Virus record (IMG/VR): IMGVR_UViG_3300025889_009691
Coordinates: 1-64,000 of that record
Strand: one strand, 5' to 3'
DNA length: 64,000 nucleotides
DNA from: a virus
In this document: one piece after another, positions 2,816 through 34,070 of the stretch
How the letters are laid out: each line of letters opens with the position of its first letter
Position numbering within the stretch: position 1 is the stretch's first letter
Notes under the pieces: model-generated
Databases searched by the model: none
Told to the model about the DNA's origin: nothing
What the model saw: only the letters and a program-made list of their open reading frames with translations
Position numbers and translations under genes: made by a program

Positions 2816-3169
2816 ATGAGTAAACGAGGCCCTAAGCGTACTGTCACTAACGCCGTGAAATTTGGCGAATACGGTAATACTATTTGGCATGTTGAGCTTG
2901 AGTGCTCTCACACAGTAGAGACTAAGCGCAAGCCTAAAGTTAATGAAGATAGACTTTGCTGTAAAGTTTGTGTTGCTCCGCCACCCCCTGCTGTCGTGGA
3001 CCCATTTGCGGATGTAGCGCCTTGGGTTGATTATGATCCGATGGATGAGCTGAAGATTAAAGCAACTTTGGCTTCTAAGGTTGGGGTCCCGCTAGACCAA
3101 GTTGAACTTGTAAACGGTACAGCGACAGTGTTTCTTGATGCACAACAACTAAGGAATATTTCAACATGA
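2816..3169 (+). CDS. hypothetical protein, possible Zn-binding N-terminus
   Basis: LECSH...LCCKVC motif; leaderless start; ATGA overlap with the next gene. Confidence 0.6.
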   Translation: MSKRGPKRTVTNAVKFGEYGNTIWHVELECSHTVETKRKPKVNEDRLCCKVCVAPPPPAVVDPFADVAPWVDYDPMDELKIKATLASKVGVPLDQVELVNGTATVFLDAQQLRNIST

Positions 3170-3897: not shown

Positions 3898-4230
3898 CTA
3901 GGCTATTAGCAGAAGATAAAGCACTATTTGTAAATAGTGGAGTGCTTGGTCAGGGTAAACATGCCAGTAAGGTTTGGGCTTTCCAGTTTTCCACGGAAGA
4001 AACTGGTAGAAGAATGCGTCTGTTAGCCAGTGCCCTACAGCAAAGTACGCAAATATCCAAGGCGTGACTGTATCTCCCAACCAATACAGGGTAGCGCATA
4101 CAACTCCTGTGTATACCATAACGTGTTCAAAAATTGCAAACAGTCGCTTTGACTTTAACTTTATCAACCAGTCTGGTTGAAGCGCAACATCGGCAAAATG
4201 ATGTGCCGCTAGTAACCATATTAGTCGCAT
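3898..4230 (-). CDS. DUF3307-like membrane protein
   Basis: AHHFADVALQ...EH...GHWLTD...DQALH conserved His/Asp pattern with hydrophobic helices. Confidence 0.75.
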   Translation of the reverse strand: MRLIWLLAAHHFADVALQPDWLIKLKSKRLFAIFEHVMVYTGVVCATLYWLGDTVTPWIFAYFAVGHWLTDAFFYQFLPWKTGKPKPYWHVYPDQALHYLQIVLYLLLIA

Positions 4231-4640
4231 AGTAGTTCATTTCTTATCTGAGTGCTGCTAATTCCTGCTGTGTACTCCGTAAATTCAATAGGTATTCCTA
4301 GTTCAAGAATTGTTTCTTTTCCTGGGAAATCATAGTTGTCATTCCCTCGAATGAAAATAAACTCGTGGTCTGGATAGGCATCAAAAGCTTCTTTGAAAGA
4401 TGCGCTTGGGTCATCTGTGTAGGTGACAAGTACATTGTCAACCAAACCCGTTATTTTTAGGTTGTTCTTTCTGTGATCTAGTGTTTGGATTGGTATTTTG
4501 CCTTTAATGCTCCAACAAGATTCGTCGGAGTGTAAAACTACAACTACAACATCAGCACTAGCTTTCATGTGCTTTAAAAGTTTGATGTGTCCCTCATGAC
4601 ACAAGTCCATTATTGCTGCAGTGAGTGCTACTTTAGCCAT
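4221..4640 (-). CDS. cytidylyltransferase (TagD/glycerol-3-phosphate CTase-like)
   Basis: DLCHEGH (HxGH), VLHSDE, C-terminal YTAGISSTQIR. Confidence 0.88.
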   Translation of the reverse strand: MAKVALTAAIMDLCHEGHIKLLKHMKASADVVVVVLHSDESCWSIKGKIPIQTLDHRKNNLKITGLVDNVLVTYTDDPSASFKEAFDAYPDHEFIFIRGNDNYDFPGKETILELGIPIEFTEYTAGISSTQIRNELLCD

Positions 4641-5161
4641 TTAGTCTTGCCTCCTCTTTGAGGGATGCGCCACGTGTCATACCAATCAGTTAAATAACCA
4701 TCAATATCGTTAGGCACGCTAAATTCGTGACCTAAATAATTTTTGGTTGATAGGGGAGAGACTAGGTGCTTTGGTCTGATTAGATGACCGTCTTCTTTAA
4801 TATTTATTAAAAGTTCAGTATCTGTTGGGTGCGGCCACCAATGAAGCACGTCAAAAACTATGTTTGTGTCCTTATGTACATACGCTGCTTGCATCGGCCT
4901 GTCGCCATCACTGACAACTCTTCCTGCAAAGAACTCTTCTTCTGGTAGTCGTGCTTTATCCCAGTAACCCATAACAGCAATGTCTAGATCGGTGTCATGG
5001 GGAATGAACTCGTTGTCTCTTTCTAGCCCCAGCAACGTTCCTGCAGACAGCCAGTAGTCATCTAAAAACTCAAGTCCACGAAGCAAAACTTCCATGACTG
5101 GCTTGCCCTTTAGGGGCTGTAAAGTGTGTTGTTGCCATTCTAGTTTGATGTTTTCATACAT
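4628..5161 (-). CDS. LicD-family phosphotransferase
   Basis: YWLSAGTLLGLERDNEFIPHDTDLDIA signature; C-terminal PNDIDGYL...W. Confidence 0.88.
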   Translation of the reverse strand: MYENIKLEWQQHTLQPLKGKPVMEVLLRGLEFLDDYWLSAGTLLGLERDNEFIPHDTDLDIAVMGYWDKARLPEEEFFAGRVVSDGDRPMQAAYVHKDTNIVFDVLHWWPHPTDTELLINIKEDGHLIRPKHLVSPLSTKNYLGHEFSVPNDIDGYLTDWYDTWRIPQRGGKTKWLK

Positions 5162-5174
5162 GCGTTTATCCTAC

Positions 5175-5616
5175 TCGTTTTTGGCAGCGTTTTCCCTCCC
5201 TTTCGTGTGGTAGTTGACGCTAACGCACGAGAGGCTGGGACGAACCCAATTGGTTTATTCAAGGCTGTTCACTTCATGGACCCCAAGCACCGCCTATCTT
5301 TTTCAGCGATGCCCACTCTCCCTAGATATGGCTCTAGTAGCCCGTGTGCCGGAACCGCATGGGCGTTTGCTTGTTCCGAACCTGTTCCTCAAGGCTTGAT
5401 GTTCTCCGTGCAGTGACTGGCATCTCGTCAAGGATGTGTGTCCAGTTTATCGTGCGATTCAGATCGTTCCTCTTTGGGCAGGCGTGCCCTCTTGTTTCTT
5501 AAGTGTTAGTACCAGTTGCGTAACGAGTGTAACCCACCGGTCCTTCAGTGAACGTTTATGTCATCGGGATTACCCGGCTGCAGTCTTGTGGCAGTGTGCT
5601 CCTTGTGTAGTAGTTT
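5175..5616 (-). ncRNA. candidate ~450-nt structured non-coding RNA
   Basis: No credible ORF; upstream promoter; long-range helix 5267-5282/5539-5553 and several local stems with minus-strand G-U pairs. Confidence 0.5.
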
Positions 5617-5622
5617 GTGAGT

Positions 5623-5651
5623 ATGCTACTGGCTTCGACGGCGCAGGTCAA
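5623..5651 (-). promoter_or_regulatory. sigma70-like promoter firing into the non-coding region
   Basis: TTGACC-17-TAGCAT on the minus strand. Confidence 0.65.
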
Positions 5652-5729
5652 GGGGTAGGTTTTGGCTTGTCTCCTTGACGGGTGACAGGTATGATATTAC
5701 ACGTATGTTGTTTATAATTAAGGAGATTT

Positions 5730-5954
5730 ATGATTAAACTTTCTAGCCCTGAGTGGTTTGAGAGTGCGCCGTGTCGGGGTAATGACCGAACGTTTTTTTC
5801 GAGCAAGCCGTCGCAACGCAAGAGCGCCGTTAAGGTTTGTGCAGGTTGTACCGCTTCTGCTAAGTGCTTAGATTTTGCAGTCACGAATAAAATCACGATT
5901 GGTGTGTGGGGTGGTAAGACCGGGCCAGAGTTGGACAGGTTAGTTAATTCATGA
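5730..5954 (+). CDS. whiB: WhiB-family transcription factor
   Basis: W...APC...FF...VCAGC...C, GVWGG; SD AAGGAG. Confidence 0.93.
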   Translation: MIKLSSPEWFESAPCRGNDRTFFSSKPSQRKSAVKVCAGCTASAKCLDFAVTNKITIGVWGGKTGPELDRLVNS

Positions 5955-20397: not shown

Positions 20398-21960
20398 ATG
20401 ACTGTTGCAGAACTAAATGACACCGAGCACGACACCCAATTCAAGGCTATTTCAGGCCAGATTGGTATCGACAAGGCTCAAGGCATCGTTGAAGCGTTTG
20501 TGTCAGGTATTGGAAATAAAGATTCTGTTGGCGACATCGTTATCGCAGGTGCGTTTAACGGGTCTCTGAAGCGACGCAAACCACGGGTTGTTTGGGGCCA
20601 CGATTGGAATCAGCCAATTGGTAAAGTTCTAGAGATTTACGAAGTCCCTAAGACTGATCCACGCCTGCCTGAAAAGATGAAGCAGGCTGGAGTTGGTGGC
20701 TTGTTTGCTAAGGTTCAGTTCAACCTTAATACTGAACGTGGTCGTGAAGCGTTTGCAAATGTTGCATTTTACGGCAATGAGCAAGAGTGGTCAATTGGTT
20801 ACAAGACAATTACTGCAGATTTTGATGCAGTTAAGCAAGCTAACATTCTCAAAGAGGTAGAGTTGTACGAAATTTCTCCTGTTCTGCATGGAGCGAATCA
20901 GTTGACCGCAACGATTTCTGTTAAAGATGATGAAAAGGGCAAGGCATCCAAAGGCTATTACGTTGAGGATGAAGATAAAGACGGCCCTGCTAGTACTATG
21001 GATGCAATGTCAGAGCGTTTGGGGCGAATGCTGTCTCAGGCTTTGCGTAAGCCCGTTCAGATTATTGAAATGGATGGAAATAACGTTGTATTCCAAACAG
21101 GCGAAGACATGACATGGAGCGCCACGATTTCTGTTGAAAATGGTCAGGTTCAGGTTGGTCGGCCTACACGTGTAAAGCCCACAACAAGCTACACCCCGGT
21201 AGGGGAGGAGGCACCCCCTTCAATGATGATTAAAGATACTGACGAAAAGAATGCTGAAGAGCCTGCGGGCGTGAGAGATGCTGATGATGAGCAGGGTTCG
21301 TGGGCTACCCCGGATATTGCTCTTGCTTGGGCTAAGACCTTTGGTTGTTCTGGTTATCACTCACATGGCGGCGGTTACATGCCGTGTGAAACGCATGAAG
21401 AGTATTTAGAAGCACTTAAAAAGTTTGATGGTAACGCTAACATCAACTCGCATAACAACTACCTTGCTGGGGTTGAGGTTGAAGAAGCAAAGGCTGCAGG
21501 GTGTTCTTGTGGGACCGAAGAAAAGGGCCATATGATGCCTAGCAAGAAGCCTGAGTATCTTAAGGACCCCATGGCTCTGCTACTTATGGCTTACAATGAG
21601 ATGCTGAAGCTTCGTGGTGCCGGTGAGTTGCGTGAGGCCACGTTGACTTTGATCGGTGCGGTCGAAGACTTCTTGACTGAAGCCCCGATGTCTCGTCCTG
21701 GCGAGCAGGGCGAGAAGGTGACTTCAGGCTTTGTTGTCCATGTCAAGTGTTCAGAGAAAGAAGCACTGGCTGTTAACGGCGCTATGTCTGGCCTGCCTGT
21801 GTTCTCGTTTAAGTCAGAAGATGGCGTTGATGTCCACTTTACGACAGAACTTGCAGAAGAAGAACTGATGGAAAAAGTCGCTGTGTCGCTTGCGGGATTA
21901 GCGTTTGAGCCTGAGGTAACAGTAACAAGACCGATTGACACCACCGAGGGTGTTCAGTAA
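20398..21960 (+). CDS. prohead protease (HK97 family) with long C-terminal extension
   Basis: DSVGD...GAF, WGHDWNQPIG, WSIGY, LYEISPVLHGAN. Confidence 0.92.
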   Translation: MTVAELNDTEHDTQFKAISGQIGIDKAQGIVEAFVSGIGNKDSVGDIVIAGAFNGSLKRRKPRVVWGHDWNQPIGKVLEIYEVPKTDPRLPEKMKQAGVGGLFAKVQFNLNTERGREAFANVAFYGNEQEWSIGYKTITADFDAVKQANILKEVELYEISPVLHGANQLTATISVKDDEKGKASKGYYVEDEDKDGPASTMDAMSERLGRMLSQALRKPVQIIEMDGNNVVFQTGEDMTWSATISVENGQVQVGRPTRVKPTTSYTPVGEEAPPSMMIKDTDEKNAEEPAGVRDADDEQGSWATPDIALAWAKTFGCSGYHSHGGGYMPCETHEEYLEALKKFDGNANINSHNNYLAGVEVEEAKAAGCSCGTEEKGHMMPSKKPEYLKDPMALLLMAYNEMLKLRGAGELREATLTLIGAVEDFLTEAPMSRPGEQGEKVTSGFVVHVKCSEKEALAVNGAMSGLPVFSFKSEDGVDVHFTTELAEEELMEKVAVSLAGLAFEPEVTVTRPIDTTEGVQ

Positions 21961-21990: not shown

Positions 21991-23817
21991 ATGAGTGATA
22001 ACCTTAATGAAGACCTTCAGAAGATGGAAGCTTTGAGCGAAGTCATCGATTCTGGGGAAAGCATGTCTGCCGCAGAGAAGGCTATGCATGATATGAAGAA
22101 AAACGCACCGTCTGTGTTTATGACTGACATTCGTTTCAAGGAGTCAATGGAAGTTGGCGATTTGCTTAGCGAAGAAGCTTTCATGTCTCTTGATGCTGAT
22201 GAGCAGAAGGGCTATGAGATGGTTCAGGTCATGGACGAGAAGAGCAAGGAGCCTATGGGCTGGGTGTTCCGTTTTAAGTCTGATGAAGATGATGAGGACG
22301 ATGCTGAAGACATTGTTGAAGAGGTCGTTGAAGATGCGGTTGAAGAATCCGTGGAAGAAAAGTCAGATGCTGATCCTATCTCAGAAAAGGCCGCTGCACT
22401 CATGTCGCAGATGCGTGCCCCTGATGATGAAAAGCCTTCAATGTTCCTTACCGATAGTCGTTTCAAGGAAATGATGGACGCTGGCGAGCTTGTTTCATCA
22501 GAAGACTATGACGTTTTAGACGAAGACGCTAAAGAAGCATTTGAGGCTGTTGATGTTTATGAAGAGGGCACCGGCAAGGGTTATGGTCGGCGCTATCGTC
22601 GTCGCAGCCCCCTTGAGTTGACAGCAATGCGTAAGGGTCAGGGTATGGATGAAAAGGCTGAAGACGGCATGGAAGACATGTTTGATTCGGAAGCTGAAGC
22701 TCTTGAGCGTGCGGCGGCGCTAGGTTGCCAGGGCGTTCATCGTGCAGGTGAAAAGTACATGCCTTGTGCAACCCACGATGATTGGATGAAGCTTAGCAAG
22801 CCTGCTGAGGCACCGGCTCCTACTCCGGCCCCTGCCCCCGCTCCGGCTGCGCCTGCTCCTGCTCCTGCTCCTGCTCCGGCTGCTGCCCCTGGTGGCATGA
22901 TGAAGTCAGAAGAAGAGTTCCTCTGTGGTTTCCAGCGCAAGTCAGTTGAGCAGCCTTGCGAGTTCTGCACAGGCGGCTGTGCTCCTGAAGATGGCCTTCC
23001 AGGGCTTGCTGACATTGAAAGTCAGGTCAAGTCAGCCTACGAGGGTTCTGAAATTATTGGCTCAGGCTACTCAGCCGGTGACGACGTATTCGTTGTCGAT
23101 GTCAAGCGGGCTGACGGTTCCTTTATTGAAGTGTTCCTGACCGGCGACGGCGAGGAGCTTGGTTGGCTGCGTTTGGATCAGAGCGCTATTGAAGGCAAGT
23201 CCGCTGAAGCTATTGAGATTGTTTCTAAGTCTGATGCTGAGGCTACGGCACGTGACGCTATTAGCGAGATGGGAATCAAGGCTGAGGTCATGAGCGTTAC
23301 TGTTGACATCTTCGCAGATGAAGATGTGTACGTGGTTGAGCTTGATGCTGAAGAGAAGAGCTACGACGTGTTCGTTGCTGCTGATGGCAAGGTGCTCGGC
23401 TATGATGAGTACGATTATGACGCTGAGGGTTCATATGAGCTTTCTGAAGAGGAAGAGATTAAGGCTATTGAGGCTGAACTTGAGATCAAGCGGATGTACT
23501 CTCGTGAGCAGCGTGAGGCGATGGCTGAGTCCGGTGAGGCTCTGCCTGATGGTTCGTTCCCGATTGCTGATGAGGCTGACCTAAGCAACGCTATCCAAGC
23601 GGTGGGTCGTGCGGCTGATCAAGAAGCTGCTAAGGCGCACATTATGAAGCGTGCTAAGGAACTGAAGTTGGAAGATATGATTCCGGCTGATTTTGCTAGC
23701 GGCGGCTCGCCTGCTCCTGCAGCCCCTGATGCTGATGCTGAAGAGAAGGTGCTAGACGAAGATATTCTTAAGGCGATGGAAGAGTTCAACAGCCTGTTGG
23801 AAGACGATTCTATCTGA
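21991..23817 (+). CDS. acidic multidomain head-module protein (internal repeat, Cys/His module, 2 PepSY-like domains, ALPDGSFPI domain)
   Basis: Motifs visible in the translation; own promoter TTGACA-17-TAAGAT and SD AGGAG. Confidence 0.7.
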   Translation: MSDNLNEDLQKMEALSEVIDSGESMSAAEKAMHDMKKNAPSVFMTDIRFKESMEVGDLLSEEAFMSLDADEQKGYEMVQVMDEKSKEPMGWVFRFKSDEDDEDDAEDIVEEVVEDAVEESVEEKSDADPISEKAAALMSQMRAPDDEKPSMFLTDSRFKEMMDAGELVSSEDYDVLDEDAKEAFEAVDVYEEGTGKGYGRRYRRRSPLELTAMRKGQGMDEKAEDGMEDMFDSEAEALERAAALGCQGVHRAGEKYMPCATHDDWMKLSKPAEAPAPTPAPAPAPAAPAPAPAPAPAAAPGGMMKSEEEFLCGFQRKSVEQPCEFCTGGCAPEDGLPGLADIESQVKSAYEGSEIIGSGYSAGDDVFVVDVKRADGSFIEVFLTGDGEELGWLRLDQSAIEGKSAEAIEIVSKSDAEATARDAISEMGIKAEVMSVTVDIFADEDVYVVELDAEEKSYDVFVAADGKVLGYDEYDYDAEGSYELSEEEEIKAIEAELEIKRMYSREQREAMAESGEALPDGSFPIADEADLSNAIQAVGRAADQEAAKAHIMKRAKELKLEDMIPADFASGGSPAPAAPDADAEEKVLDEDILKAMEEFNSLLEDDSI

Positions 23818-23838: not shown

Positions 23839-24018
23839 ATGCAGCCTAGCCAAGTAACGCAAAGGATTGCTGCTGCTAATCAAACTTTAGCAGAATTAGG
23901 AGCATATGCTGTTCTTGGCGACCACGTTAGAGATAACGAGGTAGAATACCTGTACAGAGATGGATTAGAGCATGTCTTTAGTCCCTTAGAAACCGCTGGG
24001 GATTCGGATGACGATTGA
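23839..24018 (+). CDS. small hypothetical protein (59 aa, not in ORF track; MQPSQVTQR...GDSDDD)
   Basis: SD AGGAGG before ATG 23839; overlaps the start of the giant ORF. Confidence 0.6.
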   Translation: MQPSQVTQRIAAANQTLAELGAYAVLGDHVRDNEVEYLYRDGLEHVFSPLETAGDSDDD

Positions 24019-27000
24019 GTTTAAAGCACCTGAGATTGGGCCAAACGCCGATGCTTTGACCAGCCTTACACGAGGGCGTGGTCCTCGTCGTGGCAATCTT
24101 GAGGACCTTCTCAAGTATTGGCGTCCGATTATGAAGAAGCCGGGTGGCTTCCGTCGTTGTGTTGTTATCCTTATGGATAAGCCGCAGTTTGGTGGTAAGC
24201 CTCAGCGTATTTGTGCTTGGCTTCACCACGAGTTGACTGGCAAGTGGCCCAACGAGGGCAAGGGTAAGCGTGGTAGAGGTAAGGGTAAGCGGAAGCGTCG
24301 TGGTCGTTCGGTGACTCGTCGTGTTCGGTCTGCGGGCAAGAAGTCTTTGACTGGTATTTCACCGTTAACTGAAGTTACTTCGTTGCGTATGACGATTCGT
24401 GAGTCTCGTGAGTTTGGTGGTATTCTTGTTCAGCCTATTGCTGGTCGTAAGAATGCTGTGGAGATGAAGGCTGCGATGTTCTTGCAGCATTCGGAGCGGC
24501 TGCCTTTGTTTGCTGGTAACGAGGTTAAGCGTGTTGGTGTGTTTGGTTCTTCTAGCCGTTTGGGTCAGGCTGCGCAGGCTGCGGGCAGTATTATTCTTCC
24601 GGGCGATTTGTCTGATATTCGTAGCCCTATCCGTTCTCAGATTTATGAAACGCTGACTCCTGGCGTTCCGAATATTCCTAATGCTCGTGGTGGTCGTATC
24701 CTGCGAAGCAGAGGTCGTGGTGCTCGTAATAAGTTCCGTTGTCCTCCAGGCTTTGAGAAGGGTGGTACGTTCACTAACTCCGAGTTTTCGACGTGTGGTG
24801 CCCAGATTTTGGGGATTGCTACTTCGGGTCCGGGTTCGCCCACCCCCGAGGCAAACAATAGACTTTCTCGTTTGGCGAACACTGCAGGTTTAGTTAATGA
24901 AATTGGTGATCTTCGCAACAACGACAGTGCTGTAGATATTATTCGTGCAGCTCAGATTCCGGCTGCCCCGAAGAAAGGTAGCCCGACCCGGGCAGAAACA
25001 TCTATTGATTTGGTGTTGACACGTTATGAGCAAGAAGATTTCCCAACTAAAGTTGTTCGCCGTGATGGTGTCATTTTAGAACCTGTTGTTTCAGTTGAAG
25101 CGCTTGGTAAACTTAACGAGTTTGATGACATGGCTGACGGTAGCCTTATTGAAAGATATGAGGCAGGTCAGATTGGTGCTTCTACTGTTCCTGCGTTTAG
25201 CACGAATTTGCGTAACGTGTTTGTTTCTATCCCTGATGCTGGCGCTGTTAAAATCAGTCGTGTTGGGGGAGAAATTTCTGATGCGGAACGGGCAGGGCTT
25301 CTTCGTTCGTTTGCTACTGGCATAAGCCGAAGCGCTGATTTGCCTGATCCTTCTGCTGCTGTTCGTGCGTGGGCTGACGGTTCTGATGGCCGGTTTACTG
25401 TTGAGTTTGGTGAAGTGACCGAGACCGGCTTTGCGATCGCTGAGGGCAAGAACGATTTGATTAAGGTCTCTACGGCTGGCGGCAAGACTGAAACAGTGCC
25501 TCGTTGGGTTTATGAAACGTTCTTGTCTCGTTCTGCGCCACGTCGTGCAAAAGATGCTCCGATTTATGAGATTGTTGCTGAGGAAGGTGCGGAAGAGAAG
25601 AGTGGTTCACCGTTTGCTTTCTCTCAGAAGTCAGCACCGGTTGCTACTGACTTTACTGATGTGCTTGATGCAAAGTACTATCACATGTCTGTCAATAGTA
25701 AGATTGAAGCGTTTACGTCTTTGACTGAGATTGATTTTAAGGCTCCTAGAGGTCGTGGTTTGGGTCGCCGGATCGGGCGTGGTGGTCGTGCTGTTGGTGG
25801 CCGTAGCCGTGCGGTGTTTGATGGTAACTTGGGTAGATATCGTTGTCCTCCTGGCACTCGTTATGGCGGTCGGTTCTCTAATCAGTTTGCTAGCAACTGT
25901 GGTTATTCTCTTCCACGTCAGATTGTTAATAACCTTGTTGATTTGGGTACTCGTCTTGAAGACGCTATGGAGAGGCGGCGTCGTCGCCGGTTGGACACGA
26001 GTCCGGGTGATGGTCGAAGCAATTTGAAGCCTGAGACGGCGGAGAAGCTTGATGATGCTATTCGTACTCTTGATGCTGCTACTGGTGATTTGGGTAGGGT
26101 GTTTGAGAAGACTGAGGGTGTTGAAGGCGGTAAGTTGGGTCGCACGCTTGGTGAGGCTCAGCGTGATGTTGATTTGACTCCTGAAGAGCGTCAGTTGCTT
26201 GAGGGTGAGGCTTTGGAGGCGGCGCTTAAGAATCTTCGTGATGTTATGAATGATCAGGATTTGGCTAACGCTAATTTGGATGAGATTCGTAAGGCGTATA
26301 AGGCTGTTGAGAAGGCTGCGAATACTGAGGCTGGTCGCTTGTCTGATAATCCTCCTCGTACTCCTGAGCAGCGGAGTCGGCAGGATGGTATTCTTGGTTT
26401 CTTGAGAGAGTTGATTTTGCGTTTCTTGGGTCTTTGGAATGAAGACTTTGAGCGTGAGCGTGCTGGTCGTCGTGATCGGGATGTTGTTCCGGGTGATGAG
26501 GGTGTGCCGGGTGGCCCTGGTGGTGGCGGTCCTCGTCGTCCTAGAGCGCCGGGTGTGCCGGGTGATGGTCCTGATAGTCGTGCTCCTGATGGTCGTACTC
26601 CTGATGGCCGCACTCCTGATCCTGATGATATTCCAGAGGCGCTTCAGCCCAAACCTGTTGGGGAGATGACTGATGGAGAGCTAGTTAGAGAATTCTTCAG
26701 ATTACGGCATGGTAGCCCGGGGCTTCTCATTCCGGGTCAGCGTGACGAAGAAATGGATAGACGTAGGCTTCGTGAAATCAACGCTGAGCTTCGCCGTAGA
26801 AATATTGACCCGTATAATCCTCAGACAATAACTTATACCCCTGCTGATGATGCTGACGATCCTGAAAAAATAATGGACGAGTTTGCACGAATTCTTCAAG
26901 AGTTCCGTGAGCGGGCTGAAGAATACAGAGTTTCTGGTGGCGGCAGAACCCTAGATTTTGTTGAGTCACTAGATGATGACGATTTAGATAAATACATCAA

Positions 27001-30000
27001 TGCGTTTGAAACTGCTGCTGAGGCTATGGCTGACAACCCACAGTTTGATGATATTCGTGCGGCTTTGGAGCGTTTACGGGCTGAAAGAGATCGCCGCAAC
27101 AGAAGCCGTAGTCTTGTTAATGCTAACTTGCGAGATCGTTTTGATCTTGAAACTGAAGAGGGCATGGCGGAAGCAATTCAGCATTTTTATGATCTAGCTG
27201 AGGAATATAACGCTAGAGACGCTATGACTGTAGAATTCATTCAACTTCTTAATGACGACGAAGTCGCTTTCTTCCAAGACGTATTTGATCAAGCGATTAT
27301 TCAGTTCCCTGAGGTAGCGCAGCGTGATAATGCGTTTATGAAGATTGCTGCCCGCTTAGCGGATGAACGAGATCGTCGTGACCGCCTAAACAAGGTGCCT
27401 GCCTCAGAGATTAAACCTGAAGATTATCAACGGGTCCTTGCTGAGATGGAAGCGCATATGGAGCGTTACAGGGTTGCTGGCGGCGGCATGACTCTTGACT
27501 TCTTTAATGCTATTTCTGATGATGATTTGATTAAGTATCGGCGTGCTGTCCGTGATGCTATAGATGCTAATGCGGTTCCGGCTGATGAAATCGGAAACTT
27601 GCAAGAGTTGCTGAAGCGTATGGATAACGAGTTTGATCGTCGTTTCCAAGGCCCAGGTAAGCGTCCTCGTATTGAGTCGGAAGAAAACAACATTAAGGAT
27701 AAGTTTGATCTAGACGAAAACGCTGATTTGTTTGCGGTTATTGCCGAGTTCGAGAAGCGGGCTGCAGACTTTAAGGTTTCTGGCGGCGGCATGACTCAAA
27801 ACATGTTAGAGACTTTGAGTGATGACGAACTTGACGTTTTCTTTAATGCTCATCTGCGGCTATCGGACCTTTACGCAGCTGAAGGCCGTGAGGGGTTAGA
27901 AGACCTTGAGGAACTTATTGGCCGTCTTGCGGCGGAGCGTGATCGTCGTAGACTGCAGCAGGCTGCTTTTGATCCGGGGTCCCGATCTGACCCTGATAGC
28001 CGTTCGTTGCGGAATGTAAATAATAGGTTCCCACGTAATGGTTTGCCGGGTCGTGCTTATTGGCGTGATGATGATTATAACGGTACTGATGCTGCTGAGT
28101 TGGATAGGCGTTTTGGTGGTTACTATGATGCTGATGGCAATTTGAATGATCGTGGCCGTGAGGTTAATCGTCGTCTTCGTCCTAGTGATCCTACTGATCC
28201 TAATGCTGGTGCCGGTGGTGCGCCGGAGCCGCCTGATCCGAATGATCCTGATGTTCTTGATCGGTTTAGTGATGATGAGCTTAGGGCGTTGATTGAGGCT
28301 GGCGATGATTTTCCTTTCAATCTTCAACGTATTTCTGATGATGACTTGGTTCGTCTGGATAATATTACCGGCGAGATGGCGAGAGAAAACATAAACGCTG
28401 GCAATCTGCGCAACTGGCGAGCGATCAGAGCCGAGTATAATGCTCTTGAGGATGGTACAAGAGACCCGAATCGTTTAGGTGTGAATGTTCCTGGGTCTGC
28501 GTCTAACAGGCCGCAGCGTCTGCCGGAATACAGAAATGACCCAGGCTTTAATACTCAGGGCCGGAGAGACCCTGTAAACATGCCTGAGCTTGATAATCTG
28601 ACTCCTGAGCAGATTGATAACGTGGCGGGTGCGGCTGTTCGTGAGCATCAAGAAGTTCTGCAATTGATTCTCAATGAGGTTGGTCCTCTTCAGGATGGTT
28701 GGAATGTTGCTGATCTTGAAGCGGCAGTTCGTAGGAGGATAGAGGAGGAGGACTTCCCTCAGGCCGGTGCTCGCCTACTTACGTTACGACTTCAAGCGTT
28801 CCGTGAGTTGAACCAAATGGTTGATGGTCTACGGTTTGTTCGTGAAGAAGAAAGTTTTGATGCAAATGATACTGCTGCTCGTGCGGCTCGTGATTTAGAT
28901 GTTTTGAAAGAGTATCTGCCATATCTTGCCCTAAATCGCCGTGAAGGTATTATGAATTTGCGTGATAACCCAGATGCGGCTCTTTCTCGAATTGATCCAG
29001 ACTTTGAGTTCCTTGTTGATGGTGCCCCTTCAGCTAATCGGGTAGTTGACGAACCAGAGGTTGATATTATATTTAACCGGGTTGATCCTGATTATGATGA
29101 TGCGCTTAATAGGTATGACGCTGACCCAGATCGCTTCCTTTCTGATCTTGATTTGTATTCTGCTGGAGACTTGTTAGACATGTTTGACGCTAGAGTCGGC
29201 GCTGGCGAAGTCGTTGATCCTAGCTTAAGAGCAGCATTAAAAGCCAGATATGCTGATTTGTTAAATATTAACGACGGCGATGTGGATGATCTGGCACGAC
29301 GCATGGCGAACATGGATGATGCGATGCTGGATGATATGAGTCCTCGTGATCGTGCACTCCGGCAAGCCCGTTTGCGTGCAGGCAATGCGGGCCGTCCTCC
29401 GTCTAGAGCGGCTGCAGAGCAGGCTGACCGGTTGCGTGCTGCTGATCAGCGTCGTGCTGATGCTGACAGAGGCGGCATTCCTTCAGGGGGTCCTTTCGAG
29501 TTTACGGAAGGAATGACTAGCCGTGAGCGGTTTGATGCTGTTATTGATGCAGCAGATGCTGATCCTGCGGGCGTGAGATTACAGGGGTACTTAGAAAATA
29601 TGTCTCCTGAAGAGTTTGGGCGTTTCGAACGTGAGTATGGTTCGTTATTGGCTTTTGCGGCTCAGCGTGACGCTAATGGCCTTTCTGAAGATGATGTTCA
29701 ACGGTATTTTGACTACTTAAGTGACGCTATGGACCGTGAGCGTGCTAGGCGTGGAAACATTAACCGTTTCCAGTTGGACAGAGATTTGCAGGATCGTTCC
29801 GATGAAGCTTTGGAAGCACACATAGAGCACTTACAAAACAGCAAAGCTTGGGGTCTTGACACGCTGGGTAGAGATGTTGATGAATTAGATGCTTTGATTA
29901 ATAGACTTCAGAGTGAGGTAGAAGCTAGAAGACTTAGGAACCTGGGTAGTGTTACTCCTGACCTTGTGGATCAGCCTCGGCAGGGCGATGCCGCTGTAAG

Positions 30001-33000
30001 GGTGAGACTTAGAGACGCAATGTTTGAAGATAATATGAATGCTGATAAGATACCCGGTGCGAAAGCTATGCTGAGAAACGAACTTATGCTGGCAGAAGCT
30101 TCAACTAATGAAATGTTGCGGTATAGAGAACGCATTCTAAACAGCACGAATCTTTCTGACAGTCAGAAAGATGATCTGATGCGATCTTGGAACCGTGCAA
30201 TGCGGATCAGAGGAGATAGAAGTTTTGAAAGAAACCTTCCTCTGAATGAAAGGTCAGTTGAGGCTATTGATCGTCATTTAGAGTATGTTCAAGAACGTCT
30301 TGACAACATGGACCCAAACATCATAGACGAAAATGGTCTTCTTACTTTACGTGAGGAGCTTCTTGATGGTCGTGCGGTTGCGTCGGCTCGGGCGAATCTT
30401 GGAGACGCTGTTGATAACAAGCCGCAGTTGTCTGATAGATGGCGTAAGGTGGGTAGATGGAACTTCCTCAAAGCTAGACGGCAGCGTCAGCAGAAGCGTG
30501 AGCAGAAGATTAAAGACATTGCTGAGCGTCGTTATGGTGATAGGGAAACGCAGCCGTGGGATATTGGCGGGCGTGATGGCCTGAGTGCGATGACTGATGC
30601 GCAAGTTGAATCACGAATCAGAGATGCGTTCTTGTTGGATACGGATCAGCCGGTTCAGGTTGGGTCTGTAGAGATTAATGGTAAGACGTACACGAAGCAG
30701 ATTATTCCCACGACTGATGGCCGTGGCGATGGTGTTTTCATTTCTCGTGACGGCCCTCGTGGAGATATTCTGCAGATTGATGTTCAGTCTAGTATGAAAT
30801 TCCAACTATTAGATTCTGATGGTAATGTTGTTGCTGAAGAAACTTATTCCGAAAACGATGGAGGGTTCCGGCTAGGCAGAATGTCTCGTACCATCACTTG
30901 GGATGCGCAAGGTGACGGTAAGGTTAAGCATAATTTGTTAGGTACGAGCCGTGTTATACAGTTTGAGGGACAAGACATTTCGTTTGCCGGTGGCGGTTTC
31001 ACTGAAGAGATGTTTAACAACAACTTGTTGTTCTATAGAAATATGGGTGTTAGCAAAGTTAAGGTTGGTGCTGTTGATGATGGCCGGGTTGTTTGGCCTC
31101 GCATTGGGTTTAGAGATGATAATCCTAACCATATTAGGAACCTTAACGAGGGTATGGTTGAGGTTTTGAAAGATTACAATGGCTATAAAGAAGCGAAACG
31201 TACAGGTATTGAACCTACGTTGAAGCAGCGTGCCGCAAAGGCTCTTATTCAGGATGATGTGAGGGCTGAACGTATTGAGGCTATGGTTGAGCCTTTATTG
31301 AACGTTGATGACCCAGTACGGGTGCTGGCTTCCATGGATGCTAGAGAAATTAATGAACTGCCAGACATGCATGATTTCATGTTGGCGTTGGAAGGCGAGG
31401 GTATTAGAAACTCTGTTGCGTTCCAGATGTTTAGAGGCGGTGGAGTTTACATCGGTAGAAACGTCGGTGACGACCCCGCTAACAATATTGGTGCTTTAGA
31501 TGGAGATATGGTTGATCAGTTGCTTGCTGATGACCCTGAGCTAGCAGGTTTGACGCTTCCCAACCCGTTTAGGGGCACCACGTTCAGTGACGGTACTTGG
31601 GATATTACAGATATTTTGAGTGATGCTGACGGCGATCCACGTCAGGTAACACCTGATTTGATTGATCCTTATGATCGTCCTCCAGAGCCGTCGATTCCTT
31701 CGATTCCTTCGGTACCTTCAGGACCTACTCCTCCTCCTCGTCAGAGCGACGCCAGACCGAATCAGAAATTAGACCCGAACTTTGATAGGGGCGAGCAGCG
31801 TCCGCTTCCAGCGGTTCCTGTGGGGGCGAATGGTATTGAGTCTGTTGATCAAGGTGCTGAGTGGATGAGAGATGGTAATAATGATGTTTCTGGTGTTCCT
31901 GATGAGTTCCTTAATCCTGTGGTTCTGGCGGTGTCTGATATTGGAGAAGACCGTTTAGGTCAGTATTCAAATGAGATGCTTGAAGAGTTGGTTGAAGAGT
32001 CTTTGGATGATTTGCCTTTTGATGTTACTCGTTTGTCTGATAATGACTTACAGCGGCTTGTGGGAGTAGTTGATCGTTTGTACGGTCAGAACGGTTCAGG
32101 GTATAGACATGGGCAAGCGATTCGTGATGAACAAAACCGTGTCTTGCGACGTGACGACCGTGAACCAAATGCAAGGTTTGAAATGTTGGTTCCTGGGATG
32201 GGCATGGATGACGGTGGGGGTGTCAATAACAGAGGTAATGCAATAAATGGTGCGCAGCTTATAGTAGATACTGCTACTGGTCAGATATTTATGATTAAGT
32301 TTAATGATGGGCGTTCATATGGTCGTGACGAAGACGGTAACGAACTAGTTGGCCGTGCGTTGATGATTCGTCTGGGCTTTGTTCAAGGGCAGATGAGGTT
32401 AGATGGGCCTGCAAATCCAAACGCTGCTAACCGAGACCCGTGGGATGATCCTGCTATTAACCCCGCTCGTGGCTTGATGGGTGAGGCTTTGCAGAATTAC
32501 CTTCCTGAAGGCGCTACCGATATTATGATAGGTAGACGGAACCCGGGACAGTATGATTTCTCTAATGAGAACACTCTAGACGATGCAACTCACATGATGC
32601 TGGGTGACGCTTTGTTGTTTAACAGTGATAGGCATGGTAGCAACTGGCTTCAGTACACGGATCGTGACGGAAATGTTAGACTTGTTCCTATTGACATGGG
32701 CCTGACTTTGGGTGGCCGTGACGGAGAAGATGGGACTGATAATGACTTCTTTGGGGTTGAGTACCGTGATCCACGGACGGGTGACCTCGTAAGACTTAGC
32801 CCTGAAGAACAATTTGCTGCTCGTGCCGCTAATAGCAGAGGTCCCCGTTTAAGTGGCGATCTTTATAGTCAACTTGCAGCTGCTTCAGCATCTGATCGGG
32901 CCGCTGTTGCGGCATCGTTTGATCGTGCCCTTGAAAGATTGCGGGCGGCTCAGAGTGCGGAAGATATGGAAAAGGTAATTGGCGATATTGTTGGTGCGCA

Positions 33001-33163
33001 CGGTAACCTTGATAGCGATGGGTGGAAGCGATCTCAGGAGATGTTCTTAGAACGGTACGGCTGGTTAATGGAAACAGATTATACCGGAGAAGAACTTATG
33101 GACCTAGTTTTGTTTGGCAATTACAGAGGTATGCCTCAACGCCAGAGTAACGTTGGACTTTAG
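24008..33163 (+). CDS. giant 3051-aa multidomain protein, putative virion internal/effector protein with GNAT-like and C-terminal HipA/PI3-PI4-kinase-like domains
   Basis: Uninterrupted ORF inside the head module; FMIK...E...GDALLFNSDRHGSNWL...LVPIDMG kinase motifs; GGGF...FYRNMGV...VWPRIGF GNAT-like motif. Confidence 0.75.
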   Translation: MTIEFKAPEIGPNADALTSLTRGRGPRRGNLEDLLKYWRPIMKKPGGFRRCVVILMDKPQFGGKPQRICAWLHHELTGKWPNEGKGKRGRGKGKRKRRGRSVTRRVRSAGKKSLTGISPLTEVTSLRMTIRESREFGGILVQPIAGRKNAVEMKAAMFLQHSERLPLFAGNEVKRVGVFGSSSRLGQAAQAAGSIILPGDLSDIRSPIRSQIYETLTPGVPNIPNARGGRILRSRGRGARNKFRCPPGFEKGGTFTNSEFSTCGAQILGIATSGPGSPTPEANNRLSRLANTAGLVNEIGDLRNNDSAVDIIRAAQIPAAPKKGSPTRAETSIDLVLTRYEQEDFPTKVVRRDGVILEPVVSVEALGKLNEFDDMADGSLIERYEAGQIGASTVPAFSTNLRNVFVSIPDAGAVKISRVGGEISDAERAGLLRSFATGISRSADLPDPSAAVRAWADGSDGRFTVEFGEVTETGFAIAEGKNDLIKVSTAGGKTETVPRWVYETFLSRSAPRRAKDAPIYEIVAEEGAEEKSGSPFAFSQKSAPVATDFTDVLDAKYYHMSVNSKIEAFTSLTEIDFKAPRGRGLGRRIGRGGRAVGGRSRAVFDGNLGRYRCPPGTRYGGRFSNQFASNCGYSLPRQIVNNLVDLGTRLEDAMERRRRRRLDTSPGDGRSNLKPETAEKLDDAIRTLDAATGDLGRVFEKTEGVEGGKLGRTLGEAQRDVDLTPEERQLLEGEALEAALKNLRDVMNDQDLANANLDEIRKAYKAVEKAANTEAGRLSDNPPRTPEQRSRQDGILGFLRELILRFLGLWNEDFERERAGRRDRDVVPGDEGVPGGPGGGGPRRPRAPGVPGDGPDSRAPDGRTPDGRTPDPDDIPEALQPKPVGEMTDGELVREFFRLRHGSPGLLIPGQRDEEMDRRRLREINAELRRRNIDPYNPQTITYTPADDADDPEKIMDEFARILQEFRERAEEYRVSGGGRTLDFVESLDDDDLDKYINAFETAAEAMADNPQFDDIRAALERLRAERDRRNRSRSLVNANLRDRFDLETEEGMAEAIQHFYDLAEEYNARDAMTVEFIQLLNDDEVAFFQDVFDQAIIQFPEVAQRDNAFMKIAARLADERDRRDRLNKVPASEIKPEDYQRVLAEMEAHMERYRVAGGGMTLDFFNAISDDDLIKYRRAVRDAIDANAVPADEIGNLQELLKRMDNEFDRRFQGPGKRPRIESEENNIKDKFDLDENADLFAVIAEFEKRAADFKVSGGGMTQNMLETLSDDELDVFFNAHLRLSDLYAAEGREGLEDLEELIGRLAAERDRRRLQQAAFDPGSRSDPDSRSLRNVNNRFPRNGLPGRAYWRDDDYNGTDAAELDRRFGGYYDADGNLNDRGREVNRRLRPSDPTDPNAGAGGAPEPPDPNDPDVLDRFSDDELRALIEAGDDFPFNLQRISDDDLVRLDNITGEMARENINAGNLRNWRAIRAEYNALEDGTRDPNRLGVNVPGSASNRPQRLPEYRNDPGFNTQGRRDPVNMPELDNLTPEQIDNVAGAAVREHQEVLQLILNEVGPLQDGWNVADLEAAVRRRIEEEDFPQAGARLLTLRLQAFRELNQMVDGLRFVREEESFDANDTAARAARDLDVLKEYLPYLALNRREGIMNLRDNPDAALSRIDPDFEFLVDGAPSANRVVDEPEVDIIFNRVDPDYDDALNRYDADPDRFLSDLDLYSAGDLLDMFDARVGAGEVVDPSLRAALKARYADLLNINDGDVDDLARRMANMDDAMLDDMSPRDRALRQARLRAGNAGRPPSRAAAEQADRLRAADQRRADADRGGIPSGGPFEFTEGMTSRERFDAVIDAADADPAGVRLQGYLENMSPEEFGRFEREYGSLLAFAAQRDANGLSEDDVQRYFDYLSDAMDRERARRGNINRFQLDRDLQDRSDEALEAHIEHLQNSKAWGLDTLGRDVDELDALINRLQSEVEARRLRNLGSVTPDLVDQPRQGDAAVRVRLRDAMFEDNMNADKIPGAKAMLRNELMLAEASTNEMLRYRERILNSTNLSDSQKDDLMRSWNRAMRIRGDRSFERNLPLNERSVEAIDRHLEYVQERLDNMDPNIIDENGLLTLREELLDGRAVASARANLGDAVDNKPQLSDRWRKVGRWNFLKARRQRQQKREQKIKDIAERRYGDRETQPWDIGGRDGLSAMTDAQVESRIRDAFLLDTDQPVQVGSVEINGKTYTKQIIPTTDGRGDGVFISRDGPRGDILQIDVQSSMKFQLLDSDGNVVAEETYSENDGGFRLGRMSRTITWDAQGDGKVKHNLLGTSRVIQFEGQDISFAGGGFTEEMFNNNLLFYRNMGVSKVKVGAVDDGRVVWPRIGFRDDNPNHIRNLNEGMVEVLKDYNGYKEAKRTGIEPTLKQRAAKALIQDDVRAERIEAMVEPLLNVDDPVRVLASMDAREINELPDMHDFMLALEGEGIRNSVAFQMFRGGGVYIGRNVGDDPANNIGALDGDMVDQLLADDPELAGLTLPNPFRGTTFSDGTWDITDILSDADGDPRQVTPDLIDPYDRPPEPSIPSIPSVPSGPTPPPRQSDARPNQKLDPNFDRGEQRPLPAVPVGANGIESVDQGAEWMRDGNNDVSGVPDEFLNPVVLAVSDIGEDRLGQYSNEMLEELVEESLDDLPFDVTRLSDNDLQRLVGVVDRLYGQNGSGYRHGQAIRDEQNRVLRRDDREPNARFEMLVPGMGMDDGGGVNNRGNAINGAQLIVDTATGQIFMIKFNDGRSYGRDEDGNELVGRALMIRLGFVQGQMRLDGPANPNAANRDPWDDPAINPARGLMGEALQNYLPEGATDIMIGRRNPGQYDFSNENTLDDATHMMLGDALLFNSDRHGSNWLQYTDRDGNVRLVPIDMGLTLGGRDGEDGTDNDFFGVEYRDPRTGDLVRLSPEEQFAARAANSRGPRLSGDLYSQLAAASASDRAAVAASFDRALERLRAAQSAEDMEKVIGDIVGAHGNLDSDGWKRSQEMFLERYGWLMETDYTGEELMDLVLFGNYRGMPQRQSNVGL

Positions 33164-33456: not shown

Positions 33457-34070
33457 TTAAACACTACATTTTAACGAAAAACGCTACGATGCTGCTTACC
33501 GTTTCTAGTCTTAACTCTGTAGAGTTTTTTGTTAAGCGTGGCTTTGAAGAAGAGGCAGCCGAACTTGAACTAGAGATGAGTATTCGGGCTACCCGTGAGC
33601 CTGATACTGACATGTATACGCCCACAAGAATTAAGCGACGTTTTCCAGATGCTATTGAAGTAGATTCAGCTAAGTTTGAAGATGCTCGCAAAAAAGTTGA
33701 GCAGTTTAACGCTGATTATGATGATAATGTTGCTGAGCTTGAAGCTATGTCTTTAGAAGACTTAAAAACTTATATCTCCACGGCTCCTGCTAGAATGCCG
33801 AAACTAGTGAACTATAAGCAACTTAACGAGTTGTGGCAGGTGTTGTATGCTAGTAGTGAATCAGGGTTTATGGCTATTGATGAAGAGGACAGAGAAGACG
33901 AAGAAGTTAGAGAAGATATTCATGCGTTGTATACGTTGTTGAAAGATGCTGAGATTACTAACGACAACTCTTCGATTAAAGAAGTTTTGAAATTAGCGAA
34001 GTTTGTTTCTCCTGATGCTATAGGTGTTACTTTTGAGGCAATTGAGCCGGAGGCTGAGGCTGATGGCTAA
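33453..34070 (+). CDS. acidic hypothetical protein
   Basis: 205-aa ORF coupled to the previous gene. Confidence 0.7.
   Translation: MIKHYILTKNATMLLTVSSLNSVEFFVKRGFEEEAAELELEMSIRATREPDTDMYTPTRIKRRFPDAIEVDSAKFEDARKKVEQFNADYDDNVAELEAMSLEDLKTYISTAPARMPKLVNYKQLNELWQVLYASSESGFMAIDEEDREDEEVREDIHALYTLLKDAEITNDNSSIKEVLKLAKFVSPDAIGVTFEAIEPEAEADG

Follow-up and report, generated by a model that had tools for sequence, protein, structure and literature searches.

We report here a candidate RNA gene in the DNA of an uncultured marine phage. The stretch that was analysed, hereafter the window, comprises positions 1 to 64,000 (64,000 nucleotides, nt) of the 90-kb IMG/VR virus record IMGVR_UViG_3300025889_009691. 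Between about positions 5615 and 5195, its minus strand would carry a stand-alone gene for a folded non-coding RNA of approximately 420 nt. Taken as a whole, and including a role as a scaffold acting in trans, we consider this the best explanation of the region and probably the correct one. An initial annotation had suggested a large structured RNA on this strand, and the suggestion is now supported by a conserved promoter, sharp edges of conservation, compensatory changes at 50 of 93 modelled pairs, a bias towards G-U pairs, the consensus fold and the lack of any match in Rfam.

In order to collect relatives of the RNA, we gathered loci via LicD, an exact 17-nt motif, synteny of the f3 gene and an invariant 28-nt probe scanned against metagenome contigs, the probe adding 45 loci, several of them from Tara Oceans assemblies. 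Overall, 81 full-length copies were obtained from viral and marine metagenome contigs (individual loci are given L numbers below), representing 46 distinct sequences of 399-423 nt. Similarity to the window, as detected by blastn or nhmmer, started at 5611-5617 and stopped at 5193-5198 in every relative. Identity to the window was 66-99% in the RNA region, 30-58% in the 54 nt upstream and 25-58% in the 36 nt downstream. Outside the closest relatives, f0 and f3 (our own labels for two neighbouring proteins without assigned function) were conserved at 26-39% and 43-84% amino-acid identity, respectively, and RecA, at 82-99%, was the sole neighbouring gene product of comparable conservation. The RNA gene thus appears to be the best-conserved DNA at its locus. 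No match was found among INPHARED isolate phages at the sensitivity of blastn, and no copy of the invariant 28-nt probe occurred in the GTDB species genomes of bacteria and archaea. Distant phages with an f3 protein of 34-47% identity (L046-L061) contained neither whiB nor the RNA, a search of them with nhmmer --max being empty. Literature searches returned no description of the present RNA.

A consensus scan recovered the promoter to which the initial annotation had drawn attention upstream of the RNA (Table 1). Its form, TTGAC-17/18-TAnnnT, was kept in the 46 distinct homologs, the -35 box departing (to TTGCGC) only in L074 and L101; the -35 TTG and the -10 TA...T were invariant columns and the spacer was unconserved. 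Where an insert of about 1.1 kb lies between whiB and the RNA (L079 and L083), the promoter remains beside the RNA. It appears to be a sigma-70-type promoter that belongs to the RNA gene. The 5' end of the transcript was placed from the -10 box (approximately 5616 +/- 2) and the 3' end from the point at which conservation stops. The strand is indicated by the modelled pairs, which include 491 G-U cells versus 85 A.C cells, and many of which switch from G-U to G-C or A-U, a pattern compatible with the minus strand alone. The RNAalifold consensus fold likewise reached -162 kcal/mol on the minus strand versus -145 kcal/mol on its complement.

Comparative evidence for a conserved fold

The structure model was scored on a MAFFT alignment of the 46 sequences (alignment A8, not a covariance-model alignment). 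It comprises 93 pairs in 17 helices, with 96.5% of cells paired, and compensatory double changes were seen at 50 of the 93 pairs, in 468 cells, with a covariation score of 0.344. When the 3' partners were slid by 1-3 columns as a control, 33-40% pairing, 4-10 double-change pairs and scores of 0.044-0.076 were obtained. This comparison is favoured by the model having been derived from the same sequences, a bias that affects neither the independent count of double changes nor the eight versions of the loop-loop kiss described below. None of 500 shuffles reached the observed values. Collecting homologs and looking for covariation among them had been proposed from the outset as a check on the RNA, and the 46 distinct homologs and 50 covarying pairs bear it out.

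The RNA is predicted to form at least 13 helices, with a multi-branched core that is closed by two long-range helices, P2 and P3, and from which a 105-nt arm (P5-P9) projects. A GGGC/GCCC pseudoknot would tie the base of this arm to the P10 loop, and a kiss of 5-6 base pairs (bp) would join the arm tip to the loop of the 3' hairpin. Helix P2 lies exactly where the initial annotation had placed a long-range helix (5553-5539 with 5282-5267) and showed double changes at 8 of 12 pairs (4/7 in P2a and 4/5 in P2b). Three local stems proposed at the same time were also confirmed by covariation, namely GGCAUCGCU/GGCGGUGCU (5313-5305 with 5294-5286), CGGG/CCCG (5576-5573 with 5568-5565) and CUAGA/UCUAG (5337-5333 with 5326-5322). 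Other proposals had to be revised. Instead of the local stem GGGU/ACUC, CACUC (5529-5525) pairs over a long range with GAGUG (5318-5314) to form P3, with pair types CG/GC/GU/AU and UA/AU/GC. In place of the local stem GGGCA/UGCCC, GGGC (5489-5486) pairs with GCCC (5364-5361) in the pseudoknot, and GCCUGCCC is the 5' strand of the long arm. The hairpin at 5233-5200, which had been read as favouring the plus strand, belongs to the RNA, the C.A mismatch found here being U-A or A-U in other clades, so that the hairpin gives no argument for that strand.

The two tertiary contacts were well supported by the alignment. At column pair 188/317 of the pseudoknot, 35 sequences had G-C and the other 11 had A-U without exception, and the pair switched inside one subclade too. 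The kiss comprised at least 5 bp in every sequence, had double changes in all five modelled pairs and occurred in eight complementary versions: UUGACG/CGUCAA, UACCG/CGGUA, UAGCG/CGCUA, GUAGUG/CGCUAC or CACUAC, CUGCUA/UAGCAG, UAGGC/GCCUA, UUAGCG/CGCUAA and UGGUA/UACCA. We somewhat favour a kiss within one molecule, because the linker that precedes the 3' hairpin hardly varies in length (32-36 nt) although its sequence is variable. As a variant of our explanation, the P9-P13 kiss could be intermolecular, head to tail, and the RNA would then self-assemble into an RNA-only multimer (a ring, a chain or a cage) like ROOL or GOLLD. The kiss does link two different loops, covarying in eight versions, and conserved A-rich loops and two linkers of variable sequence are present; kissing loops of ROOL and GOLLD that were first read as tertiary contacts proved to be interchain bridges (PMC12286853), and assemblies of shorter natural RNAs are reported in a 2026 preprint. 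The near-fixed linker, however, fits an intramolecular tether better than a free arm, and we consider such a multimer rather unlikely.

Several elements of the RNA are conserved in sequence. The AGGAG motif lies about 12-17 nt from the predicted 5' end, and no conserved start codon follows it in the 46 sequences. No partner strand was found for the junction AUGACAUAA (5564-5556). P12 contains four G-U pairs that are replaced by G-C or A-U in some homologs, a change that fits the minus strand only, and its A-rich loop has the conserved form GAAAAA(G)AUA. The invariant hexamer CACACG, with G-rich sequence after it, is found at two sites of the RNA, in the junction CACACGGGC and in the 3' hairpin as CACACGAAAGGG (5209-5204), and this duplication could represent a repeated recognition site. 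Three candidate features were examined and rejected. A predicted pairing of 5519-5511 with 5347-5340 showed no covariation and had six mismatches at one pair. Pairing of the 3' tail with 5240-5237 held in only 73% of cells and was dropped for a weak local hairpin. Lastly, TTGACG in the P9 loop resembles a -35 box and matches the whiB promoter region over 9 nt. This likeness is a chance feature of the majority clade, as the loop covaries to unrelated sequences elsewhere.

The same alignment bears on whether the region encodes one or more small proteins. Open reading frames (ORFs) of 61-80 amino acids on the plus strand and of 42 amino acids on the minus strand are present in the window, and every homolog has ORFs of 34-92 amino acids. 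The plus strand, however, is poor in A, so that stop codons are rare by composition; between 5100 and 5700 its T-over-A skew (AT skew of about -0.3) gives rise to long spurious ORFs over the RNA gene (5207-5416 and 5436-5678). Variation lacked three-base periodicity (0.477, 0.481, 0.437), single-base insertions and deletions were polymorphic in the most conserved core (alignment columns 198, 295, 367, 371, 382 and 389), the frames and ends of the ORFs differed among clades, and the substitutions were those of compensatory pairs. We give a coding function practically no weight.

An element acting at the level of DNA was considered as well, that is, an origin in the divergent region or a replication primer, perhaps a structured primer transcript like ColE1 RNA II. 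The region sits between divergent operons near genes for a Rad52-like protein, a Cas4-like exonuclease and RecA, the GC skew changes sign at it and the promoter is strong. The change in skew, however, coincides with the switch in gene direction. The initial annotation had named behaviour as a replication origin as a reason to abandon the RNA, and a repeat scan found no origin-like repeat arrays (DnaA boxes and an AT-rich unwinding stretch were not searched for). The 50 compensatory pairs, the strand-specific G-U pattern, the pseudoknot and the kiss argue for a folded RNA over duplex DNA, and we regard the origin or primer as very unlikely.

Table 1. Coordinates of the promoter, the transcribed region and the parts of the predicted fold, listed from 5' to 3' on the minus strand
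Feature	Position	Strand	Observations
Promoter of the RNA gene	5623-5651	-	-35 TTGACC 5651-5646, 17-nt spacer, -10 TAGCAT 5628-5623; consensus scan
Predicted transcribed region, ~420 nt	5195-5615	-	match edges of all homologs
A/C-rich unpaired 5' leader	5615-5577	-	mean 71% A+C; variable apart from AGGAG; unpaired in consensus fold
AAGGAG, Shine-Dalgarno-like	5599-5604	-	AGGAG in 46/46, 14-20 nt past the -10 box, unpaired
P1 hairpin CGGG-UAAU-CCCG	5565-5576	-	double changes at 3/4 pairs; 100% of cells paired
P1-P2 junction AUGACAUAA	5556-5564	-	AUGACAUAA in 44/46, AUGACAUAC in 2/46; AUGACAUA invariant in 46/46
P2a/P2b 5' strands with GAA internal loop	5539-5553	-	P2a 5553-5547, P2b 5543-5539
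P3 5' strand CACUC	5525-5529	-	long-range partner GAGUG 5318-5314; 100% of cells paired
Pseudoknot 5' half GGGC	5486-5489	-	partner GCCC 5364-5361 in P10 loop
Long arm P5-P9	5380-5483	-	~104-108 nt, length constant
P5	5483-5476 with 5388-5380	-	double changes 5/8
P6	5472-5469 with 5394-5391	-	double changes 1/4
P7	5465-5451 with 5408-5398	-	double changes 2/8
P8	5446-5442 with 5420-5416	-	double changes 3/5
P9	5436-5432 with 5425-5421	-	double changes 5/5
P9 loop UUGACG, kiss partner	5426-5431	-	complementary to CGUCAA 5219-5214
P10 hairpin, loop with GCCC 5364-5361 (pseudoknot 3' half)	5349-5379	-	double changes 3/9; 100% of cells paired
Single-stranded CACACGGGC	5340-5348	-	invariant in 46/46
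P11 hairpin CUAGA-GCCAUA-UCUAG	5322-5337	-	one pair U-A in 25, C-G in 21; loop GCCAUA nearly invariant
P12 hairpin, A-rich loop GAAAAAGAUA	5286-5313	-	double changes 5/9
P2b/P2a 3' strands with AUGA internal loop	5267-5282	-	P2b 5282-5278, P2a 5273-5267
Linker with weak small hairpin 5247-5237	5234-5266	-	32-36 nt in 46/46, sequence variable
3' hairpin P13, loop CGUCAA 5219-5214 kissing the P9 loop	5200-5233	-	double changes: outer 4/8, inner 2/2

Genomic setting of the RNA gene

The non-coding gap in which the initial annotation had placed the RNA is real: positions 5162-5729 are free of genes and form the divergent intergenic region between licD (4628-5161, minus strand) and whiB (5730-5954, plus strand). 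To the left, the minus strand encodes licD, a cytidylyltransferase and a DUF3307 protein. To the right, whiB is followed on the plus strand by f0, f3, a Rad52-like annealing protein and a Cas4-like exonuclease. Among the genes in the record are those for a terminase, a portal protein, an HK97-type capsid protein, a tail sheath, a class II ribonucleotide reductase and a bacterial-type RecA. The terminase, portal, capsid and sheath genes are those of a phage, which is therefore a large contractile-tailed one, and the source appears to be an uncultured marine tailed phage encoding WhiB. Published work uses WhiB to mark phages with actinobacterial hosts (PMC7771536), and the host is presumably actinobacterial because the phage encodes this protein. 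A search with RecA for further clues to the host matched marine metagenome proteins only; relatives of at least 84% identity fell into more than 120 protein clusters, so that this phage lineage is widespread in marine metagenomes.

With the exception of L079 and L083, where 1.1 kb intervenes, whiB adjoins the RNA in all loci. The gene on the other side of the RNA differs from phage to phage, being a convergent f1 in most, the licD cassette in this window, other cargo of 1-3 kb in some and recA directly in others. This arrangement bears on whether the RNA acts in cis as the 5' leader (for example, a riboswitch or an attenuator) of downstream genes on the same strand (licD here, recA in some relatives). 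In this window licD does lie on the same strand, 33 nt beyond the conserved block and with no U-tract terminator between, and recA starts about 40 nt past the RNA in the clade of L081, L086, L092, L094, L105 and L107. In most phages, however, the next gene, f1, is convergent with the RNA and ends 10-40 nt away, and the inserted cargo varies by phage, so the RNA holds no constant place in the 5' untranslated region of one gene class. Conservation, moreover, ends ahead of the downstream start region. In three lineages licD has a -10-like box of its own 6 nt before the ATG (TAGGAT at 5168-5173 on the minus strand here, TAAAAT and TAAGAT at equal distance in L004 and L005), which agrees with the initial annotation and fits a leaderless licD transcript. 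Since the gene beyond the RNA is not constant and is often convergent, we do not take the RNA for a leader and hold this possibility to be highly improbable; the variety of downstream genes (licD, convergent f1, recA and other cargo) points to a stand-alone gene.

Several further observations were made on the neighbouring genes. The licD/cytidylyltransferase/DUF3307 cassette (3898-5161, minus strand) is present in only some relatives, as judged by comparison with L007, L012, L013 and others. An insertion hot spot lies between the RNA gene and f1 or recA; this slot holds cargo of 1-3 kb that differs between phages, or is empty. The f1 gene (2816-3169 on the plus strand; L007:1991-2356; L012:2897-3310; and others) encodes a small basic protein that starts with MSKRGPKR and whose invariant C-x-H...CC-x2-C motif probably forms a zinc ribbon. 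This protein matched no Pfam or PHROG family, and f1 is missing beside the RNA in one clade. As a candidate partner protein, f1 gave an AlphaFold model with a predicted local distance difference test score (pLDDT) of 48, too poor for interpretation, and a model of f0 (pLDDT 71) had no match in the PDB by Foldseek at E<=0.001. In L079 (3453-4233) and also in L083, about 780 nt without convincing ORFs are inserted between whiB and the RNA promoter. This insert is built of repeats, with units of about 80 nt containing GGACCCCAAUAU...UUAGGGACU and two copies of a 54-nt unit that are 93% identical, and could represent a further repetitive element acting as RNA or as DNA.

Two features of the structural region, distant from the RNA, were also recorded. 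An ORF of 3051 amino acids (24008-33163, plus strand), flanked by the prohead protease region and by the capsid genes, has no Pfam match, and each of three large head-region proteins (20398-21960, 21991-23817 and 34024-35577, plus strand) contains a short DUF3721 motif.

Proposed role of the RNA

We propose that the RNA would be made by the host RNA polymerase early in infection and would act in trans. The leftward transcription unit is headed by a strong promoter of the host type, from which we would expect early and abundant synthesis. The fold would form a rigid scaffold on which a partner would find several conserved unpaired elements, namely AGGAG, the junction AUGACAUAA, CACACGGGC, the loop GCCAUA and the A-rich loops. 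The host small ribosomal subunit is a tentative candidate for this partner: AGGAG could pair with the 3' end of the 16S rRNA, the RNA acting as a decoy or as a docking platform. A precedent is GOLLD, a large phage RNA for which ribosome binding has been reported (PMC12286853).

A number of points weigh against this account. The energy of folding of the single sequence was no better than that of shuffled controls, with z-scores for the minimum free energy of +0.55 (5162-5729), -0.03 (5195-5615, minus strand) and -1.54 (plus strand). The initial annotation had itself offered such a result as grounds for giving up the RNA. These z-scores are not better than expected by chance and the helices therefore rest on comparative evidence and not on thermodynamics; we regard the folding energy as uninformative, and it is outweighed by the covariation. 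The ends of the transcript, its strand and its abundance are all inferred. No U-tract intrinsic terminator follows the RNA in this window, so that read-through into licD is possible; the 3' hairpin P13 may double as a terminator. As regards the ribosome, the idea derives from a single 5-nt motif, which lies 34 nt from a conserved AUG, too far for normal initiation. Genes of the phage itself, such as whiB, use the same AAGGAG; a decoy would therefore compete with them, and a pure decoy would be costly. Finally, the present data would also fit binding of a protein or of another RNA, catalysis or self-assembly.

A bolder possibility, which we consider improbable, is that the RNA would be a self-sufficient machine of a new class, acting without a dedicated protein in the takeover of marine actinobacteria. 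It would do so either as a head-to-tail homo-oligomer, joined by the P9-P13 kiss and showing several copies of AGGAG to capture host 30S subunits, or as a new ribozyme. The covariation in the alignment is already sufficient to guide structural work, and the exposed AGGAG, the kiss, which is open to mutation and rescue, and the pseudoknot offer testable handles.

Comparison with known large RNAs

To our knowledge, non-coding RNAs of bacteria or phages that exceed 400 nt and have an elaborate conserved fold fall into very few classes, and each such class that we know of (RNase P RNA, tmRNA, OLE, GOLLD and ROOL) has so far proved to do something unusual. The size of 400-420 nt and the long-range helices of the present RNA are reminiscent of RNase P RNA or tmRNA, and Ms1, GOLLD, ROOL and raiA had been named as candidates in the initial annotation, so that we had to consider whether it has diverged from one of the established classes (RNase P RNA, tmRNA, group I intron, 6S/Ms1, OLE, ROOL, GOLLD or raiA). 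A search of the 64-kb window with the 4227 families of Rfam 15, the check that had been suggested, gave no family at gathering score. The only hit at E<=10 was hsp17 (E = 7.9, far under its gathering score) at 5159-5233, where it clips the 3' hairpin; no family match was accepted for the RNA at this threshold in the window, and none overlapped it in 12 diverse homologs. Specifically, no covariance-model match to ROOL, GOLLD, OLE, raiA, HEARO, IMES, RNase P RNA, group I or II introns, 6S or Ms1 was found in the window and these 12 homologs. ARAGORN detected neither a tRNA nor a tmRNA in the window, and the 5' 40 nt, unpaired, also speak against a tmRNA. The earlier failure to recognise RNase P, tmRNA or intron motifs therefore holds, and we judge membership of any of these classes to be extremely unlikely.

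ColE1 RNA II shares with the present RNA a promoter, a structured transcript of several hundred nucleotides and a position near replication or recombination genes. It differs in that no origin-like repeat arrays are found here and that the present fold is far more elaborate and conserved. The 6S and Ms1 RNAs are abundant trans-acting decoys that bind bacterial RNA polymerase, Ms1 being found in Actinobacteria, and a likeness may be seen in that the present RNA adjoins the gene for WhiB, a sigma-factor-binding protein; it has, however, neither their long rod with a central bubble nor a match to their Rfam models. OLE, an RNA of about 600 nt from Bacillota that forms part of a ribonucleoprotein complex, is likewise a large, highly conserved non-coding RNA with many helices, and it has been proposed to hold the ribosomal protein bS21. 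Unlike the present RNA, which did not match its model, OLE is bacterial and has dedicated partner proteins encoded next to it.

The present RNA has the features of the 'ornate' large non-coding RNAs, a descriptive class and not a family united by homology: it is 399-423 nt long and non-coding, and has 17 helices, a pseudoknot and a kiss, with covariation at 50 pairs. It would be the first of this kind tied to phages that encode WhiB, and hence presumably to actinobacterial hosts. The closest in kind are ROOL and GOLLD. ROOL, of about 580 nt, is found in phages and prophages. It and the present RNA are both encoded by phages (here as indicated by the terminase, portal, capsid and sheath genes), are several hundred nucleotides long and have many covarying helices, pseudoknots, a covarying kissing loop and variable linkers, with no known protein partner. 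The present RNA is smaller, at about 420 nt, has no similarity to ROOL in sequence or to its Rfam model, and carries an invariant AGGAG near its 5' end. ROOL often lies beside tRNA islands, whereas the present RNA has a nearly constant place beside whiB in one marine phage lineage, with no tRNA genes found by ARAGORN in the 64-kb window. The structure of ROOL has been determined by cryo-electron microscopy (Kretsch et al. 2025, PMC12286853). GOLLD, also found in marine metagenomes, is again a large structured RNA of phages and prophages with a covarying kissing loop, which was later shown to be interchain (PMC12286853), and binding of GOLLD to ribosomes in pull-downs is cited in that paper. 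GOLLD is about twice as long as the present RNA, is often found beside tRNAs and varies in its 5' half, and its model gave no match here. Based on these comparisons, the present RNA is best described as a new family within a known kind, resembling ROOL and GOLLD in kind and differing from them in sequence, model, size and setting.

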